DNA of 4,891 bases from a virus (taxonomy: Duplodnaviria; Heunggongvirae; Uroviricota; Caudoviricetes): IMG/VR virus record IMGVR_UViG_2585427789_000012; one strand, written 5' to 3'. Below are positions 1-4,891 of this stretch, piece by piece. The notes under the pieces are model-generated. The model made no database searches and was not told where the DNA came from. It worked only from the letters and a program-made list of their open reading frames with translations. The translations under genes and the position numbers were made by a program. How positions within the stretch are numbered: position 1 is the first letter of the stretch; each line of letters starts with the position of its first letter.

Positions 1-265
1 GCGTTTCCCCGTTCTGGCCTGTCCACTGGCTCACCTGCATGTTACCCGCCACGCTCACCAGTTCGCCTTTGTGGTGTTTTGCCAGTGCGTCGGCCTGTCT
101 GCCAAACGCCAGGACAGATAACCACATCGTCGCCGTTCCGTCATCTGCCTGGCTGCACGGCAGGGGAACCGCCATACTCGCCATCGCCATTTGTGTCCCT
201 TTGCTGGTGGTCTTTAACTGCGGGTCAGCCACCAGCCGCCCGTAAGCCGCTATCTGTGCTGTCAT
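1..265 (-). CDS. Partial CDS (N-terminal 88 codons; gene continues past the window start): SSB-like OB-fold single-stranded-DNA-binding protein
   Basis: Minus-strand frame is open from ATG at 265-263 to the window edge; it is absent from the ORF track because it has no stop in the window. Translation MTAQIAAYGRLVADPQLKTTSKGTQMAMASMAV...WLSVLAFGRQADALAKHHKGELVSVAGNMQVSQWTGQNGE aligns by eye to E. coli SSB at the conserved G.L..DP...W..V..FG..A...KG..V...G...WT.Q.G positions. The ATG overlaps the stop of the upstream ORF (ATGA at 262-265). Confidence 0.6.
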   Translation of the reverse strand, partial: MTAQIAAYGRLVADPQLKTTSKGTQMAMASMAVPLPCSQADDGTATMWLSVLAFGRQADALAKHHKGELVSVAGNMQVSQWTGQNGET

Positions 266-507
266 GCTGTCTGCTCTCCGGTTTTAACGTTGATGGTTGT
301 CACCTGTTCCGCTTCGGCAATCTCCCGTTCTGTCAGCGTGGCAAAGTTTGCCGCTGCCGTGGTCATGAATGCGCTTACCAGTTCGGGATGTGCTTTTGCG
401 TACCCTTCTCCCGCGTTGCGGTCGATGATTTTTATCGCCACCCTCAGCCAGTGTTCTGTCAAATCAAGGGCGTGAGATTGTGGTTTTTTTGCGTGCTTCG
501 TTGTCAC
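262..507 (-). CDS. Hypothetical protein, 81 aa
   Basis: ORF with GTG start at 507-505, preceded by SD GAGGT (515-519 on the minus strand) at 7-nt spacing. Its stop is coupled to the SSB-like start. No family recognised. Confidence 0.5.
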   Translation of the reverse strand: MTTKHAKKPQSHALDLTEHWLRVAIKIIDRNAGEGYAKAHPELVSAFMTTAAANFATLTEREIAEAEQVTTINVKTGEQTA

Positions 508-551
508 AGGCTTTACCTCACAGCAATAAAATAAAATTTTTGCATTTTAAC

Positions 552-781
552 CCTTCACCTGTTCACCTTTTGAGATTTTCCCTTTTTATTCATAATGTTA
601 AGGGGTGAACAGTTTCACAAAAACTATTCACCAACTGTTCACCACTGTTCACCCTTAAAGCTCAATAAATAATCAAAAAGGTGAACAGTGAATAGTTTGG
701 TGAACAGTTCACAAATAACTGTTCACCCTATAATGTACTGATATAAAAGATATTTATAACAGGGTGAACAGTGGTGAACAG
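552..781. repeat. Iteron array: nine perfect copies of CTGTTCACC/GGTGAACAG plus degenerate copies; crr/ori-like replication element
   Basis: CTGTTCACC at 559-567, 635-643, 645-653 and 719-727. The inverse GGTGAACAG at 604-612, 680-688, 699-707, 763-771 and 773-781. Degenerate copies at 552-559, 613-618, 627-632, 688-695 and 708-712. An AT-rich stretch (728-762) sits inside the array, which lies directly downstream of the replication gene. Confidence 0.8.
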
Positions 782-794
782 TTATTCCATAAGT

Positions 795-2609
795 TTAATT
801 TTTGCTGTCGTCATTTGTGACCGATGCACATGATGGCATCCAGTCTTCTGAATCCTCTGTCAGTGTCACATTTGAACGCAAACCGTGCTTCGTTTTCCGT
901 TTTATATACTCCCTGCCATATTCCGCCATTGCCCCCGGCATATCTTTACCGAAGCGCGTCAGTGTTACAGGTTTACCGAATCCGTGTGCCCTCATATATG
1001 CCAGATAGGCGTGATAAAGATACCTGCGCGGACTGAACGGAATAATTTCGGCATTACCCACTAACAGACCATCACACATTACCGACGACATGAGATAGCC
1101 ACAGAAGTCCACCAGCGAATCGCCCTCGCGTTTTATCACCAGAGCTTCTTCTGATTTCTGCTGCTCATACAGCAGGCGTTTAGCTTCGTCCTGGTCAGAA
1201 AAACGAGTAAGCAGATGGCGAATCACAACCGCCAGCTCTCCTTCTATTTTTTCTGCCAGCATGGGGTCGCGCTCGTTCTCCGGTACAACCTCCGAAAAAT
1301 TGAATATCACCCGACGACGTGAGATCCCCCCGCTGCGGTCACTGAATGACATGGCGTTATTGTTCACCGCCAGCACGACCGCCTGAATGCGTGTTGAGTA
1401 GGGGGCTTTATGCTTCGGGTCGATTGCCACCTTGTCACCGCCTGTAATAGCCTTAATTCCTGCGCCATCACCAGCGTAGCGGGTCATATCCGGCATGATA
1501 ATCAGCGAAAAGCCAACCACTAACGCGCGTTCCCTTGCATCTTCCAGCGCCTTCATGCTTGCCGATACTGTGTTGGCCTTACCCGCCAGCATGGTGCAAA
1601 TCTCCGCCATCACGCTTTTACCACTTCCCCCTGGACCTGTTACCTCAATGAATAACTGCCAGTCGTACCGGTTCGCCAGCACCATGAATAATGCAGCCAG
1701 CACGCGATCCGTCTTGCGGTCATTCTCTGCCACCGAGCAGCGTAACCACTTCCAGAAATTCGGCGCATGTGTTGCCAGCGTTTCCCCCTCTGCTGGTGGG
1801 CTGAAAGGTAATTCACTGGCAATTAACAACCAGTCGTTTTTGTTATGCTCCCGAAAATTACCTGTTCTGGTATCAAATACCCCGTTACTGAATCCAATCA
1901 GGTTACGGGCTGTATTCCCCATTACAGGCAAACTTAACTTCATGGTATCGACCGCCGATTTAATGGCGTTCTGCGAATAGCTGATCTCCGCATCAATGAA
2001 AATCTGCGCCATAGCACGCTGTAACTCTTTATCCTGAATCGGCTCCCATACAACGCCGTTGTAATGGTGAACAGTGTCAGAGTCGGCATGAATCGCCAGT
2101 TCACCGCCATAATGTGCCAGGAGAACTTCGCCGCGCTGGCTTGCTCCCATCTGGTTAAGCGCCAGTGGTGCGGCGCTGTCTTCTGTTTTTTTCTTAACAG
2201 GAAGCTGAATCACCAGACCATCAGAAAGATTCTGGCGCTCACGGGCCAGATATTCGCGCCAGTTCTGCACCTCCTGGCCGTGCATACCCTCAGGATAAAA
2301 ATTTGCATCCTGTACGCCTGCCGCCGCCAGCTTCTGACCAATCGCCTTTATCATTACTGGCGCAAGATATCCGGCCCTGAATATGCGCACGGATTTTCTG
2401 CCTTCCGGCACAATTTGCAGCTTATCCAGTTCGGATAACTGCTGCTCCCCAAGCCACACAGGAGGCTCATTATCTCCGGCCATACGCGCGTCATGTTCCT
2501 GCCATTGTTTTGCGTGTGACCAGGCATCACTACCCGCAAAAATAATGACTTCTGTTTCTTTGTGTTTTATGCCGCGTGACTGCTGTTTTACGTTCGGTGC
2601 CAGTTTCAT
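795..2609 (-). CDS. P4 alpha-family replication protein (D5_N-like region plus SF3-type P-loop NTPase; 'phage/plasmid primase, P4 family' C-terminal type), 604 aa
   Basis: Walker A VTGPGGSGKS near residue 325, followed by ITGGDKVAIDPKHK...NNNAMSFSDRSGGISRRRVIFNF, which is typical of P4-alpha/D5 helicase cores. SD AGGGG lies 6 nt upstream and the ATG overlaps the upstream stop (ATGA at 2606-2609). The first ~300 residues contain no Cys, so no zinc ribbon is present. Confidence 0.88.
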   Translation of the reverse strand: MKLAPNVKQQSRGIKHKETEVIIFAGSDAWSHAKQWQEHDARMAGDNEPPVWLGEQQLSELDKLQIVPEGRKSVRIFRAGYLAPVMIKAIGQKLAAAGVQDANFYPEGMHGQEVQNWREYLARERQNLSDGLVIQLPVKKKTEDSAAPLALNQMGASQRGEVLLAHYGGELAIHADSDTVHHYNGVVWEPIQDKELQRAMAQIFIDAEISYSQNAIKSAVDTMKLSLPVMGNTARNLIGFSNGVFDTRTGNFREHNKNDWLLIASELPFSPPAEGETLATHAPNFWKWLRCSVAENDRKTDRVLAALFMVLANRYDWQLFIEVTGPGGSGKSVMAEICTMLAGKANTVSASMKALEDARERALVVGFSLIIMPDMTRYAGDGAGIKAITGGDKVAIDPKHKAPYSTRIQAVVLAVNNNAMSFSDRSGGISRRRVIFNFSEVVPENERDPMLAEKIEGELAVVIRHLLTRFSDQDEAKRLLYEQQKSEEALVIKREGDSLVDFCGYLMSSVMCDGLLVGNAEIIPFSPRRYLYHAYLAYMRAHGFGKPVTLTRFGKDMPGAMAEYGREYIKRKTKHGLRSNVTLTEDSEDWMPSCASVTNDDSKN

Positions 2610-2905
2610 TTTTTACCCCTGAATCCGTTAATCATGGTTTTCAGCTTCTGGATGTTTGCCCGTGCCCTGGCGTTGCTGGTGGACACGTTATGCGGCGCGG
2701 TCTGTACCAGAGAAAAATCACGCCGGAACTGATAAACAGGCATCACGCAATCATATTCGTAACCTTCACGGCGGTAGGTTACGCGCCGTTCTTCCACGTC
2801 CTTAATCATTACCGTGCCGCCGTACTGGTCGCGGTAAATATCGCCGCGCGTAAATTTAGGGTGAGTGTTGCCACTGGCAGTTAAGCCAGAATATTTAAGT
2901 TTCAT
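2606..2905 (-). CDS. Hypothetical protein, 99 aa, translationally coupled to the replication gene
   Basis: ATG at 2905 with SD GGAG 10 nt upstream; stop overlaps the alpha-like start. No family recognised. Confidence 0.6.
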   Translation of the reverse strand: MKLKYSGLTASGNTHPKFTRGDIYRDQYGGTVMIKDVEERRVTYRREGYEYDCVMPVYQFRRDFSLVQTAPHNVSTSNARARANIQKLKTMINGFRGKK

Positions 2906-2910
2906 TATTT

Positions 2911-3144
2911 TTATTCTCCGGTGTGCTGTTCTTTATATCTGTCGTGCAATAGATCTATTTCTTGCAGTTCCATTATTACAGGCTCAAGAAGCGTTATTAA
3001 TGCCGTGGCAATTCTTGATTTTTGTTTGTCGCGTTCATTGTCGCCAAGTGTTTCAAGCCATATGCGCAATATTTCCAGCATGTTTTCACTGTGAGAAAGT
3101 GCAAGAAATGCGCGGCCTATTGTTTCGTGGTAAATATCACGCAT
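2911..3144 (-). CDS. Hypothetical protein, 77 aa (predicted helical)
   Basis: ATG at 3144 with SD GAGGA 8 nt upstream; it overlaps the stop of the upstream ORF by 8 nt (3137-3144). Its stop at 2911-2913 is 5 nt from the next start. Confidence 0.6.
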   Translation of the reverse strand: MRDIYHETIGRAFLALSHSENMLEILRIWLETLGDNERDKQKSRIATALITLLEPVIMELQEIDLLHDRYKEQHTGE

Positions 3145-3397
3145 GGCTTACATCCTCAGGAAATTTTCTTCTATAACGCGCCTCTGCCACATATTCCGCA
3201 TAATCGGCGGCGATATTCAGTACATCAAGCCCCGTTGATTTATATTCTCTCGTGGAAAGTAAGAAAAAAGCCGCTCTAATAAGCTCTGGCATTGACGAAA
3301 GCGCATCAGCCGCATCATCAGGAACGCCGGAAAATTCCTGTTTCAGGGAATTAAAACGATCATCACGCATAACCCCCCCCATTTTCACAATCAGCAA
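3137..3397 (-). CDS. Hypothetical protein; 86 aa from the TTG at 3397, more likely 77 aa from the ATG at 3370 (alternative ATG at 3382)
   Basis: The ATG at 3370 gives the same 8-nt ATGCGTGA start/stop overlap seen at 3137-3144 and is preceded by the G8 tract (3373-3380 on the minus strand) acting as an SD-like element. The N-terminus is therefore ambiguous. Confidence 0.55.
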   Translation of the reverse strand: MLIVKMGGVMRDDRFNSLKQEFSGVPDDAADALSSMPELIRAAFFLLSTREYKSTGLDVLNIAADYAEYVAEARYRRKFPEDVSHA

Positions 3398-3602
3398 TCA
3401 GGATGGCTTTAGCCTCATTCAGCGCCATATCAGCACTAAATTGCATAAGAGCCAGTGAGTGAGGAACGAAAGCCCCGGTATATTCTGTTTCGCTGGTGGC
3501 GTGCTTATGCGCCTTGTCTGCGATAACAGAAATATCAATCAGCGCGTGCATCAGCGTTTTGATGGCTTCGGCGGCTGCGTCCGGTGTGGTTTTATTGTGC
3601 AT
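3363..3602 (-). CDS. Hypothetical protein, 79 aa
   Basis: ATG at 3602 with SD-like GGGGGA 6-7 nt upstream; it overlaps the stop of the upstream gene by 11 nt. The C-terminal codons run through the G8 homopolymer. Confidence 0.6.
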   Translation of the reverse strand: MHNKTTPDAAAEAIKTLMHALIDISVIADKAHKHATSETEYTGAFVPHSLALMQFSADMALNEAKAILIADCENGGGYA

Positions 3603-3798
3603 AGGTTTCCCCCTGGCGAATACGGGCGGCGAATACCATCACGCAGCCATCAGGAGATTGCTGACGCGCTTCCTGTTCGCTGGTGGCCTCAATGGTAATC
3701 ACGCGCGGTTGTGCCGTGCTCAGGGCGATAAAACGCCAGATGTATTTATTCAGGTTGTACGAGTCCCGCCCTTGCGGGTGTCTGGTATAATTTCTCAT
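3592..3798 (-). CDS. Small protein, 68 aa, first gene of the leftward operon; possibly Icd-like (host cell-division inhibitor family)
   Basis: ATG at 3798 with SD GAGG at 5-nt spacing. It is the C-terminal 68 codons of the 382-aa track ORF (MRNYTRHPQGRDSYNLNKYIWRFIALSTAQPRVITIEATSEQEARQQSPDGCVMVFAARIRQGETYAQ). The Icd-like label is from recalled annotations of P4-like prophages and is not verified. Confidence 0.55.
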   Translation of the reverse strand: MRNYTRHPQGRDSYNLNKYIWRFIALSTAQPRVITIEATSEQEARQQSPDGCVMVFAARIRQGETYAQ

Positions 3799-3905
3799 AG
3801 CTGCCTCGATACTTCTGCTATCGTTGGTGGTTAGACGCCCTGCATGTGTTGCGAGCACTGCGGGGCGTTGCTTAATTTGAGTGACAAAACTCAAACTGTG
3901 CGCAC

Positions 3906-3935
3906 AGATTAAAATCATGTGTGCGCACATGTCAA
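3906..3935 (-). promoter_or_regulatory. Candidate leftward early promoter (-35 TTGACA at 3935-3930; -10 TAATCT at 3911-3906, 18-bp spacer)
   Basis: Perfect -35 hexamer on the minus strand with a moderate -10; predicted start near 3899, giving a ~100-nt leader before the ATG at 3798. Confidence 0.4.
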
Positions 3936-3938
3936 TAC

Positions 3939-3967
3939 TTAACATCTCATTTTTTTTGCTGTATTGT
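3939..3967 (+). promoter_or_regulatory. Candidate rightward promoter (-35 TTAACA at 3939-3944; -10 TATTGT at 3962-3967, 17-bp spacer)
   Basis: Sigma70-like hexamers read by eye, positioned divergently from the leftward promoter and upstream of the ATG at 4004. Confidence 0.3.
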
Positions 3968-4003
3968 GTGCGCCCATAAAGTCCATTTAAGTGAGGTGCA
4001 TCA

Positions 4004-4201
4004 ATGTCTAGCGGTAACACAAACAACAAATCAGCAAAGAAAAATATTCGATTCCCACATGAGCTTATAGATGGGATTGATGCCAGCGTTGAACAAGAAA
4101 AATTAACTAATCCTAGTGCTAATTTTTCCGCATGGGTCTTAGATGCCTGTGGACGCAAATTAAAATATGAACAGCGCCGGAAGGCCAAAGAATCAGAATA
4201 A
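4004..4201 (+). CDS. Small DNA-binding protein, 65 aa; putative ribbon-helix-helix (CopG/Arc/ParD-like) regulator
   Basis: SD AGGT 6 nt upstream of the ATG. KKNIRFPHELIDGIDASVEQEKLTNPSANFSAWVLDA fits the RHH pattern of an N-terminal beta-strand followed by two helices. It is divergent from the early operon and next to the palindromic operators. Confidence 0.5.
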   Translation: MSSGNTNNKSAKKNIRFPHELIDGIDASVEQEKLTNPSANFSAWVLDACGRKLKYEQRRKAKESE

Positions 4202-4243
4202 TCACTATCAGCGCCGTGGTGTGAGTAACTACGGCGCATTGCT

Positions 4244-4432
4244 ATGCAGGGCAACACAATGACCGATAAAGAATTGACCAAAACATTATCACCGACACGG
4301 AAAAGACGGCGCAGAAAGATAGAGCATGAATCAGAAAGATTCGCACCTTGTTCGTTTGCTCTTGAGAAATTCCTTAAAGAGCGCAGGAAAAAACTCTCGT
4401 TGCAAACCTTGGAACGAACCAAATCTGACTGA
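4244..4432 (+). CDS. Hypothetical very basic small protein, 62 aa (or 57 aa from the ATG at 4259)
   Basis: ORF containing TRKRRRRK; weak SD for the 4244 start, AGGG 9 nt upstream of the 4259 start. A terminator follows. Coding status is uncertain. Confidence 0.3.
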   Translation: MQGNTMTDKELTKTLSPTRKRRRRKIEHESERFAPCSFALEKFLKERRKKLSLQTLERTKSD

Positions 4433-4498
4433 TCACATTGCCCACCAGCCGCAAATGTGGCATTGTTGGTGATGCTTTTGTTTTCCCTTGTTCCCACT

Positions 4499-4527
4499 GG
4501 CGACCCTTTTGCGGTCGCCTTTGTTTT
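4499..4527 (+). terminator. Rho-independent terminator (stem GGCGACC/GGTCGCC, 7-nt loop, TTTGTTTT tail)
   Basis: Perfect 7-bp GC-rich stem at 4499-4505 and 4513-4519, followed by a U-tract at 4520-4527. A weaker bulged hairpin with a U-rich tail precedes it at 4443-4484. The reverse complement has no U-tract, so it is + strand specific. Confidence 0.65.
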
Positions 4528-4565
4528 GCCTGTTATCCGGCAATAGTGGCGCTTCACCACACGGT

Positions 4566-4574
4566 TGATATAAT
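4566..4574 (+). promoter_or_regulatory. Extended -10 promoter element TGATATAAT
   Basis: Perfect TATAAT at 4569-4574 with TG at 4566-4567; no good -35, which extended -10 promoters can lack. Predicted start near 4581. Confidence 0.4.
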
Positions 4575-4580
4575 TCCCCT

Positions 4581-4651
4581 GCACTGATCCATTTTTTTCG
4601 CAGCAGGTTAATTGTTCAGAAAGGCGGTTCCTTATCGGGGCCGCTTTTTTT
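4581..4651 (+). ncRNA. Candidate ~70-nt small RNA (from the extended -10 promoter to an intrinsic terminator)
   Basis: Predicted start near 4581. Terminator hairpin GCGGTTCC (4624-4631), loop TTATC, GGGGCCGC (4637-4644; two G-U pairs), then T7 (4645-4651). No ORF of note lies between them. Confidence 0.3.
4624..4651 (+). terminator. Rho-independent terminator (8-bp stem, 5-nt loop, T7 tail)
   Basis: Stem GCGGTTCC/GGGGCCGC with two wobble pairs, followed by TTTTTTT at 4645-4651. Confidence 0.55.
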
Positions 4652-4891
4652 ATGCCTGAAAATACCCGATAACATGGCTTTTTAGTTTCACCAGGACGAA
4701 CGAAGCCCCGCCCCTGTTCGGGCGTATATCCAGTATTCATGGTTAGATCTCTGTGTTAGTGGATGGGTGGCGGCGGTGCGCCGCCAGCCTGATTAGTGAA
4801 CTGCCTCGCGGCTGTCCTTCCATGCCAGAACTTCGGATAAAGACCAGCCAACGGAACGACCGCCGAGTTTACGCCGTGATGGGAATTGTCC

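Follow-up and report, generated by a model that had tools for sequence, protein, structure and literature searches.

The DNA analysed here, a window of 4,891 nucleotides recorded in IMG/VR as the caudoviricete sequence IMGVR_UViG_2585427789_000012, is a stretch of the chromosome of Escherichia coli E600003, from which it differs at a single base (position 3116). With 12-kb flanks added (sequence L001), it falls within an island of ~15 kb, at L001 positions 3709-18771, that splits yifB/comM. Judged by its genes, the island is a capsid-forming phage-inducible chromosomal island (cf-PICI), and the window is the part of this 15-kb E. coli satellite that is densest in Chi, the octamer GCTGGTGG to which the host enzyme RecBCD responds. 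The interrupted gene, which encodes a Mg-chelatase-like AAA ATPase, persists as two fragments (L001 2344-3708 and 18772-18945), both annotated as pseudogenes. The related islands that we sampled sit elsewhere: one between smrA and abgR, one between phoQ and roxA, and one beside a tRNA-Ile gene.

The island is transcribed along the minus strand of the window. In that direction its genes run from the integrase and AlpA, through a truncated accessory gene with the divergent YlcI gene and an icd-like protein, to three small open reading frames (ORFs), a DUF4222 gene, a D5-type primase/helicase of 604 residues and an AT-rich iteron region; these are followed by a small ORF, SSB, a ProQ/FinO protein, an HK97-type capsid protein, an S78 protease, the portal, the connector, HNH, TerS and TerL. 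Pfam matches assign to the island its own HK97-type capsid, prohead protease, portal, connector, HNH, TerS and TerL, and its annotation contains no tail genes. The packaging genes are complete and the island looks intact. A length of ~15 kb, an integrase at one end, an AlpA regulator and a replicase adjoining an iteron origin all agree with the layout of cf-PICIs. By annotation and Pfam, the window (1-4891, minus strand) holds the replication and regulation module: the end of ssb, a small ORF, the origin, the primase gene, the DUF4222 gene, three small ORFs, the icd-like gene, the divergent YlcI gene, a pseudogene and the start of alpA. The replicase gene (795-2609, minus strand; 604 residues with D5_N, DUF5906 and Pox_D5 domains) contains two of the Chi sites. 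The AT-rich origin region (540-790) carries ten copies of TGTTCACC at 560-780, five on each strand, and serves here as context rather than as a Chi feature; two extra copies, one per strand, lie inside the primase gene at 1361 and 2066.

An exact search of both strands for GCTGGTGG found eight sites in the window, the same eight that an earlier note on this DNA had listed: five on the plus strand (203, 1792, 2675, 3492 and 3679) and three on the minus strand (229, 1109 and 4442). Every one of them lies inside an annotated coding sequence, that at 4442 in a truncated pseudogene; three are sense and five antisense with respect to their gene. Two of the sense sites read x-CTG-GTG-G and one reads GCT-GGT-GG, and the antisense sites read xCC-ACC-AGC in four cases and CCA-CCA-GC in one.

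This number is far above what composition or codon usage would produce. Dinucleotide shuffles of the window (n = 200) gave a mean of 0.17 Chi and a maximum of 2, as against the 8 observed, in line with the random expectation of about 0.15 proposed earlier. When synonymous codons were permuted within each window gene, a procedure that keeps each protein and each gene's codon usage, 0.91 Chi were expected (maximum of 5 in 5000 permutations); permuting the order of the codons lowered the expectation to 0.28. The synonymous shuffle of all island genes predicted 1.44 Chi where 12 are observed. Chi is also the commonest octamer of the island, with 13 copies versus 11 of the iteron core, and its one-mismatch variants are rare there save for GCTGGCGG (8 copies). 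The Chi excess is real and is not a side effect of codon usage, which accounts for less than one window site. The earlier note had allowed that part of the excess might be codon-driven and had proposed codon-preserving shuffles as a check: these did not reproduce a similar count, and of the supposition only that share of less than one site stands, the bulk of the eight falling outside it.

A broader version of the coding explanation would make Chi a by-product of codon usage, codon-pair bias or amino-acid motifs (Leu-Val-Gly/Glu, x-Thr-Ser). The placement of all eight window sites in coding sequence and the use of the common codons CTG and GTG by the sense sites would suit it, as would the behaviour of host genes, which in 150 kb of the same genome exceed their expectation 2.28-fold in the same kind of shuffle test (30 Chi observed, 13.1 expected); the shuffles, moreover, do not keep codon-pair bias. 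However, the protein- and codon-usage-preserving shuffles fall far short of the observed count, five of the window sites are antisense and involve no favoured codons, and Chi outnumbers every one-mismatch variant and every other octamer. With the null inflated by the host's 2.28-fold, the window still had P ~1e-3 and the island a P between 1e-3 and 2e-4. Satellite P4 and helper phage HK106, which share the host and have a similar guanine-plus-cytosine content, are Chi-free or Chi-poor. The data disfavour a coding by-product, which we regard as very unlikely. Two other sources of the pattern were tried and rejected. The 13 island sites share no flanking positions beyond the octamer, and a longer common motif or repeated segment is not in evidence, since the repeat finder gave, besides the iterons, only short chance pairs. 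Nor is there a polarity directed toward the origin, as around oriC: 9 of the 13 island sites face the iteron origin, which is not significant, and inspection of the site lists of three related islands (L073-L075) did not repeat the pattern.

Comparison with the host genome, another of the proposed checks, places the excess in the island rather than in its surroundings. Chi occurs at 1.64 per kb in the window, at 0.86 per kb in the island (13 sites) and at 0.20 per kb in the 150 kb of host DNA, where the densest 4.9-kb window has 4 Chi and the densest 15-kb window 6. The average of one Chi per 4.6 kb that the earlier note gave for E. coli agrees with the 1008 sites of K-12 (PMC12315714). Amelioration is a further explanation. 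Zheng et al. warn that cryptic prophages can gain Chi as the chromosome does (PMC12315714), and the five plus-strand sites are co-oriented with the three Chi of the flanking host DNA, all of them on the plus strand. What amelioration does not account for is a density four times (island) to eight times (window) that of the host, with an excess over codon expectation about three times the host's own, when the host DNA flanking four islands has just 4 Chi in 33 kb. Eight of the 13 island sites are oriented the 'wrong' way for their chromosomal position, a virion-derived record of a Klebsiella cf-PICI (vB_KppS-Ant) is enriched as well, and the island's intact appearance also speaks against amelioration. 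With the data so set against it, we give amelioration very little credence.

The individual sites differ in how widely they are conserved. The most deeply conserved of the window lies at 1109-1116 (minus strand), where the primase/helicase gene reads TCG-CTG-GTG-GAC on its sense strand. Of 16 primase homologues from different genera, 12 have the exact site and all 16 have CTGGTGG. It has been kept although third-codon-position identity is only ~50%, and among the gene's same-phase octamers it ranks in the top 1.4%. The site at 229-236 (minus strand), on the sense strand of ssb (CGG-CTG-GTG-GCT, Arg-Leu-Val-Ala), has the orientation typical of the family and was found in all six E. coli ssb homologues examined, at a local identity of 78-90%. 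Sites other than these two are present only in close relatives, or are one mutation short of Chi there, a distribution that indicates turnover. Antisense to ssb, the site at 203-210 (plus strand; coding strand ACC-ACC-AGC, Thr-Thr-Ser) is kept only in the close relatives L080 and L081 and is altered in L073-L076. The site at 1792-1799 (plus strand), antisense to the primase gene (CCA-CCA-GCA, Pro-Pro-Ala), occurs in 7 of the 16 homologues; its conservation does not exceed the background of the gene (top 24.5%), and we do not claim purifying selection on it. At 2675-2682 (plus strand), antisense to the DUF4222 gene (TCC-ACC-AGC), Chi is shared with L075, and L074 and L076 have GCTGGTTG at that position. 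Two plus-strand sites share the antisense reading GCC-ACC-AGC-GAA: that at 3492-3499, in a small gene of unknown function, is shared with L075 only, and that at 3679-3686, in the icd-like gene, is shared with L073, L081 and L005 of E. ruysiae. The last site, at 4442-4449 (minus strand) on the sense strand of the truncated accessory pseudogene (GCT-GGT-GGG), is shared with L081 only. The sites at 203 (plus) and 229 (minus) form a perfect 8-bp inverted pair, 18 nt apart and ~300 bp from the iteron origin, that is kept in L080 and L081; whichever side RecBCD came from, it would thus run into an active Chi ~300 bp from the origin.

Enrichment in related elements, which the earlier note had also suggested looking for, recurs in seven further E. 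coli PICIs and in twenty cf-PICIs of other genera. Four other E. coli cf-PICIs, among them an EDL933-type element whose DUF927 replicase is unrelated and another that has a RepA helicase, have 13-15 Chi each (0.84-0.97 per kb). Three E. coli PICIs of other types, which lack TerL, have 9-10 each (0.75-0.84 per kb); because they are equally Chi-rich, we dropped the idea that enrichment is tied to possession of a terminase. For all seven of these islands the observed count was reached in none of 500-1000 shuffles. The twenty cf-PICIs from outside Escherichia were located through their primase, with bounds set by tblastn, and belong to Klebsiella, Enterobacter, Serratia, Pluralibacter, Proteus, Xenorhabdus and other genera. 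Together they hold 59 sense Chi versus 14.2 expected and 3 antisense Chi versus 4.2 expected, so that the sense strand is enriched about fourfold and the antisense strand is not, a bias beyond codon expectation at P = 1e-4.

Two elements of the same host provide the contrast. P4 has no Chi in its 11.6 kb. We rejected enrichment as a property of P4-like elements, P4 being Chi-free and the island not belonging with P4. HK106 encodes Abc2 and Erf; its 41.5 kb hold 4 Chi (0.10 per kb), all on the top strand. It is a proven helper of EcCIEDL933 (bioRxiv 10.1101/2022.09.08.507074), and the EDL933-type island L074, in which we detected no Rec or anti-RecBCD genes, has 0.84 Chi per kb, an eightfold contrast within one helper-satellite pair. 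The Chi excess is probably a selected property of the mobile element and not of individual genes.

RecBCD responds to 5'-GCTGGTGG-3' only on approach from its 3' side (bioRxiv 10.1101/2021.07.08.451572). The gene-sense strand, which is enriched across the family, is the minus strand of the window, and the five plus-strand sites form the atypical set. The mix of five plus and three minus sites is not neutral: the plus sites are extra, antisense enrichment being confined to the sampled Escherichia elements. When the eight E. coli islands are pooled, sense sites number 60 versus 13.1 expected and antisense sites 37 versus 9.0 expected. The split between sense and antisense is 3/5 in the window, where the family's bias is absent, and 8/5 in the island, where it is weak, on a map whose cohesive-end site (cos) is itself placed by inference. 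The evidence for that placement comes in part from vB_KppS-Ant, the record of which opens with terS and closes after HNH. In the island these termini correspond to the HNH-terS intergenic region, and the 6 Chi of vB_KppS-Ant are all on the top strand; HK106 is laid out alike, with terS first and HNH last. From the record termini and the gene order, cos would lie between HNH and terS. When 45 sense sites of 15 non-Escherichia elements were set on a map based on cos, 22 of them fell in its rightmost 20%. In phage LLS, 20 of 23 Chi are on the top strand and half lie in the rightmost 22% (PMC12315714), a pattern that the right-end clustering outside Escherichia, taken as an analogy, reproduces. 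Near the terL-side end, and about equally far from it, a Chi stands on the minus strand in our island (L001 3935) and on the plus strand in L073, L074 and L076 (~195-203).

Strand and position also bear on two further explanations. PICIs are highly mosaic, and in L073-L081 the same primase, ssb and icd modules stand beside unrelated packaging and accessory modules. Such mosaicism, together with the rapid turnover of sites among close relatives and an enrichment on both strands in E. coli that suits ends arising on either side, would be expected if Chi sites were recombination hotspots for module exchange between related islands, a selfish effect for which packaging is irrelevant. We consider this unlikely, and equally so the route that it would take, in which incoming satellite DNA or its fragments would have a Chi-bearing segment copied into a resident island by RecBCD, Chi and RecA. 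A hotspot effect does not predict the near-exclusive sense bias or the right-end clustering outside Escherichia, and the lack of Chi in P4, another mosaic element that is common in E. coli, is not explained by it.

The second explanation is immune evasion, whereby Chi would limit the RecBCD degradation that feeds CRISPR spacers, Argonaute guides and other defences, and would make the satellite 'look like self'. An enrichment that involves both strands, as in E. coli, would suit protection against ends of either polarity, no RecBCD inhibitor was detected in the satellite, and Levy and colleagues reportedly found in 2015 that Chi sets the bounds of spacer acquisition. Chi as a mark of self is, however, a disputed view (bioRxiv 10.1101/2021.07.08.451572), and neither the cos-related strand bias nor the right-end clustering in other genera is predicted by evasion, which we judge to be distinctly improbable as the source of the excess.

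None of the island's 24 annotated products has a Pfam match to Gam, Abc2, RecT, Erf, Red-beta or exonuclease, and none of the ten products run against PHROGs matches these families there; the island does encode an SSB. Among phages, those with a Rec module and an inhibitor lack Chi, and those without them accumulate it (PMC12315714, Zheng et al. 2025, where Bobay et al. 2013 is cited for the same rule). Because the island, with no detected Rec function or inhibitor, fits this published dichotomy of Chi-rich and Chi-poor phages, we propose that its Chi sites have been selected for leading host RecBCD-RecA to spare and recombine the satellite's linear DNA, a reading that we favour without being certain of it. 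The suggestion in the earlier note that Chi could shield linear or rolling-circle forms of the element from RecBCD corresponds, by analogy, to the published account of Chi-rich phages without recombination genes (PMC12315714; bioRxiv 10.1101/2021.07.08.451572), and it is consistent with the failure of the island's products to match a Gam, Abc2 or recombinase family.

That RecBCD acts on these sites during the satellite life cycle, and at which stage, we infer as follows. The satellite would pass through linear forms that bear ends, namely the cos-cut genome, broken forks, rolling-circle tails and concatemers, the last of which the island's own HNH/TerS/TerL packaging machine would need. RecBCD entering at such ends would meet Chi frequently and would switch within 1-2 kb from degradation to RecA loading. 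The spared DNA could then be recombined into multimers or used to prime recombination-dependent replication, and the multimers thus formed would be the substrate for the cos terminase. Sense sites (minus strand of the window) would face RecBCD entering the HNH-proximal 'right' cos end, and antisense sites (plus strand of the window) would serve RecBCD coming from the opposite direction. A wider claim, which we advance only tentatively and with more doubt than confidence, is that enterobacterial PICIs as a class depend on host RecBCD-Chi-RecA, a requirement hitherto unrecognised in these satellites, dense Chi taking the place of an anti-RecBCD protein, and that the Escherichia antisense set reflects an additional need. 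Such a need would be for protection or recombination from both ends, or for evading defences that RecBCD feeds, such as CRISPR adaptation.

Several points weigh against selection for handling by RecBCD-RecA. The near-equal enrichment of the two strands in E. coli is not predicted by a simple model with a single entry end, and the Escherichia antisense (plus-strand) set is unexplained by such a model. The compared elements share modules and ancestry, which means that their counts are not independent; cos was placed from record termini and gene order rather than measured; and codon-pair bias was left free in the synonymous shuffles. Seven small island proteins without an assigned function may hide an anti-RecBCD protein, and Abc2 of HK106, which modifies RecBCD, may neutralise Chi during the helper-driven cycle. 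Wild-type lambda, which is Chi-free, survives entry into the cell, and protection at entry is thus not obviously needed. Finally, the paper that describes cf-PICIs mentions neither Chi nor RecBCD (bioRxiv 10.1101/2022.09.08.507074), and we found no experimental link between RecBCD and PICI biology.

Selection of Chi for RecBCD-RecA would nonetheless place the island beside known Chi-rich systems. Like phages of the LLS class, it is temperate, packaged from cos and resident in an enteric host, no recombinase or RecBCD inhibitor was recognised in it, and its top octamer is Chi, at several times the density in the host. Outside Escherichia the PICI family likewise has Chi on the top (late-gene sense) strand, clustered toward the putative right cos end. 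The island differs in being a 15-kb satellite that borrows helper tails, whereas LLS-class phages are autonomous and of 30-58 kb; E. coli PICIs are enriched on both strands; and a PICI helper may supply a modifier of RecBCD, as with Abc2 in HK106. RecBCD dependence has been shown for LLS (PMC12315714), whereas in the island it is proposed. In density, the island (one Chi per 1.16 kb) and the window (one per 0.6 kb) exceed LLS (one per 1.86 kb) and P1 (one per 1.9 kb) (PMC12315714). The Chi sites of P1 have likewise been explained by selection for engaging RecBCD-RecA with linear DNA (Subramaniam and Smith, bioRxiv 10.1101/2021.07.08.451572), and their mixed orientation resembles that in E. coli PICIs. 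P1, however, must recombine terminal repeats to circularise after headful packaging, a need that is absent in the island, which carries an integrase along with packaging genes of the cos type (HNH, TerS, TerL). The same logic, which has been proposed for LLS-type phages and P1 and established for lambda red gam chi+, holds for that phage and for Chi-protected rolling-circle plasmids, in which, without Gam or Red, multimers or high-molecular-weight DNA require a correctly oriented Chi (Lam 1974, Henderson and Weil 1975 and Dabert 1992, as cited in PMC12315714 and bioRxiv 10.1101/2021.07.08.451572); those constructs come from the laboratory and have one or a few Chi, whereas the island is natural and has 13.

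Among satellites, the closest counterpart is EcCIEDL933 (bioRxiv 10.1101/2022.09.08.507074), which has the same gene order (int, alpA, replicase and origin, followed by capsid, protease, portal, connector, HNH, TerS and TerL), a length of ~15 kb and no tail genes. It is induced by its helper and makes its own small capsids, which are joined to helper tails (bioRxiv 10.1101/2022.09.08.507074). The EDL933-type L074 matches 66% of our island at 81% identity, and roughly 1,980 E. coli genomes gave matches. The EcCIEDL933 type differs in its DUF927 replicase, where our island, inserted in yifB/comM, has a P4-alpha-like primase/helicase. With P4 itself the island has in common TGTTCACC iterons identical to the type-1 ori/crr repeats of P4, a D5-type helicase, an AlpA-type regulator and an icd-like gene. 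P4, in contrast, has no capsid, portal or terminase genes and carries sid, delta and psu instead; sid, delta, psu and epsilon were neither annotated nor detected in the island. A terminase of the P2 type packages monomeric circles, and concatemers would then not be needed. The description of the element as P4-like, made earlier, holds for the replicon, with its iterons and D5-type helicase, but not for the whole, which has its own capsid, portal, HNH, TerS and TerL; as far as gene content tells, the island is not P4-like as a whole, and only its replicon resembles P4.

The window has further features that lie apart from Chi. A C8 run (G8 on the coding strand) at 3373-3380 marks the junction of two minus-strand ORFs, 3137-3370 and 3363-3602, which match the C-terminal and N-terminal halves, respectively, of the 154-residue phrog_2512. 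This suggests a phrog_2512 gene split at a homopolymer tract, either by a frameshift or possibly in a phase-variable manner. Where the icd-like operon and the YlcI gene diverge, the promoter region holds GTGCGCAC palindromes at 3898-3905, 3921-3928 and 3968-3975, two of them exact and one with one mismatch; they look like operator sites, and their count alone is not significant. A mechanically called ORF of 382 residues (3592-4740, minus strand) spans the icd-like gene, this promoter region and the antisense of the YlcI gene. Within it, RefSeq has only the truncated pseudogene (4197-4740) and the icd-like gene (3592-3798), and the ORF is probably not a gene.

We found no report of Chi-richness in PICIs or other satellites in the searchable literature. 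The pattern of dense Chi in elements without a recognised Rec module, so far documented for autonomous phages (lambdoid phages without such modules, and P1), extends to satellites. If the sites are functional, RecBCD-RecA would be a host factor for the spread of PICIs, which carry virulence and defence genes between enterobacterial species, and the density and strand of Chi would be a simple sequence marker of packaging polarity and host adaptation. A 15-kb element with 13 synonymously recodable sites would in that case also be a clean experimental system. What most deserves following up is the antisense set specific to Escherichia, together with the way in which helper and satellite contrast. 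Should the dependence on RecBCD-Chi-RecA prove true of the class as a whole, Chi content would predict which hosts and helpers a PICI can exploit.

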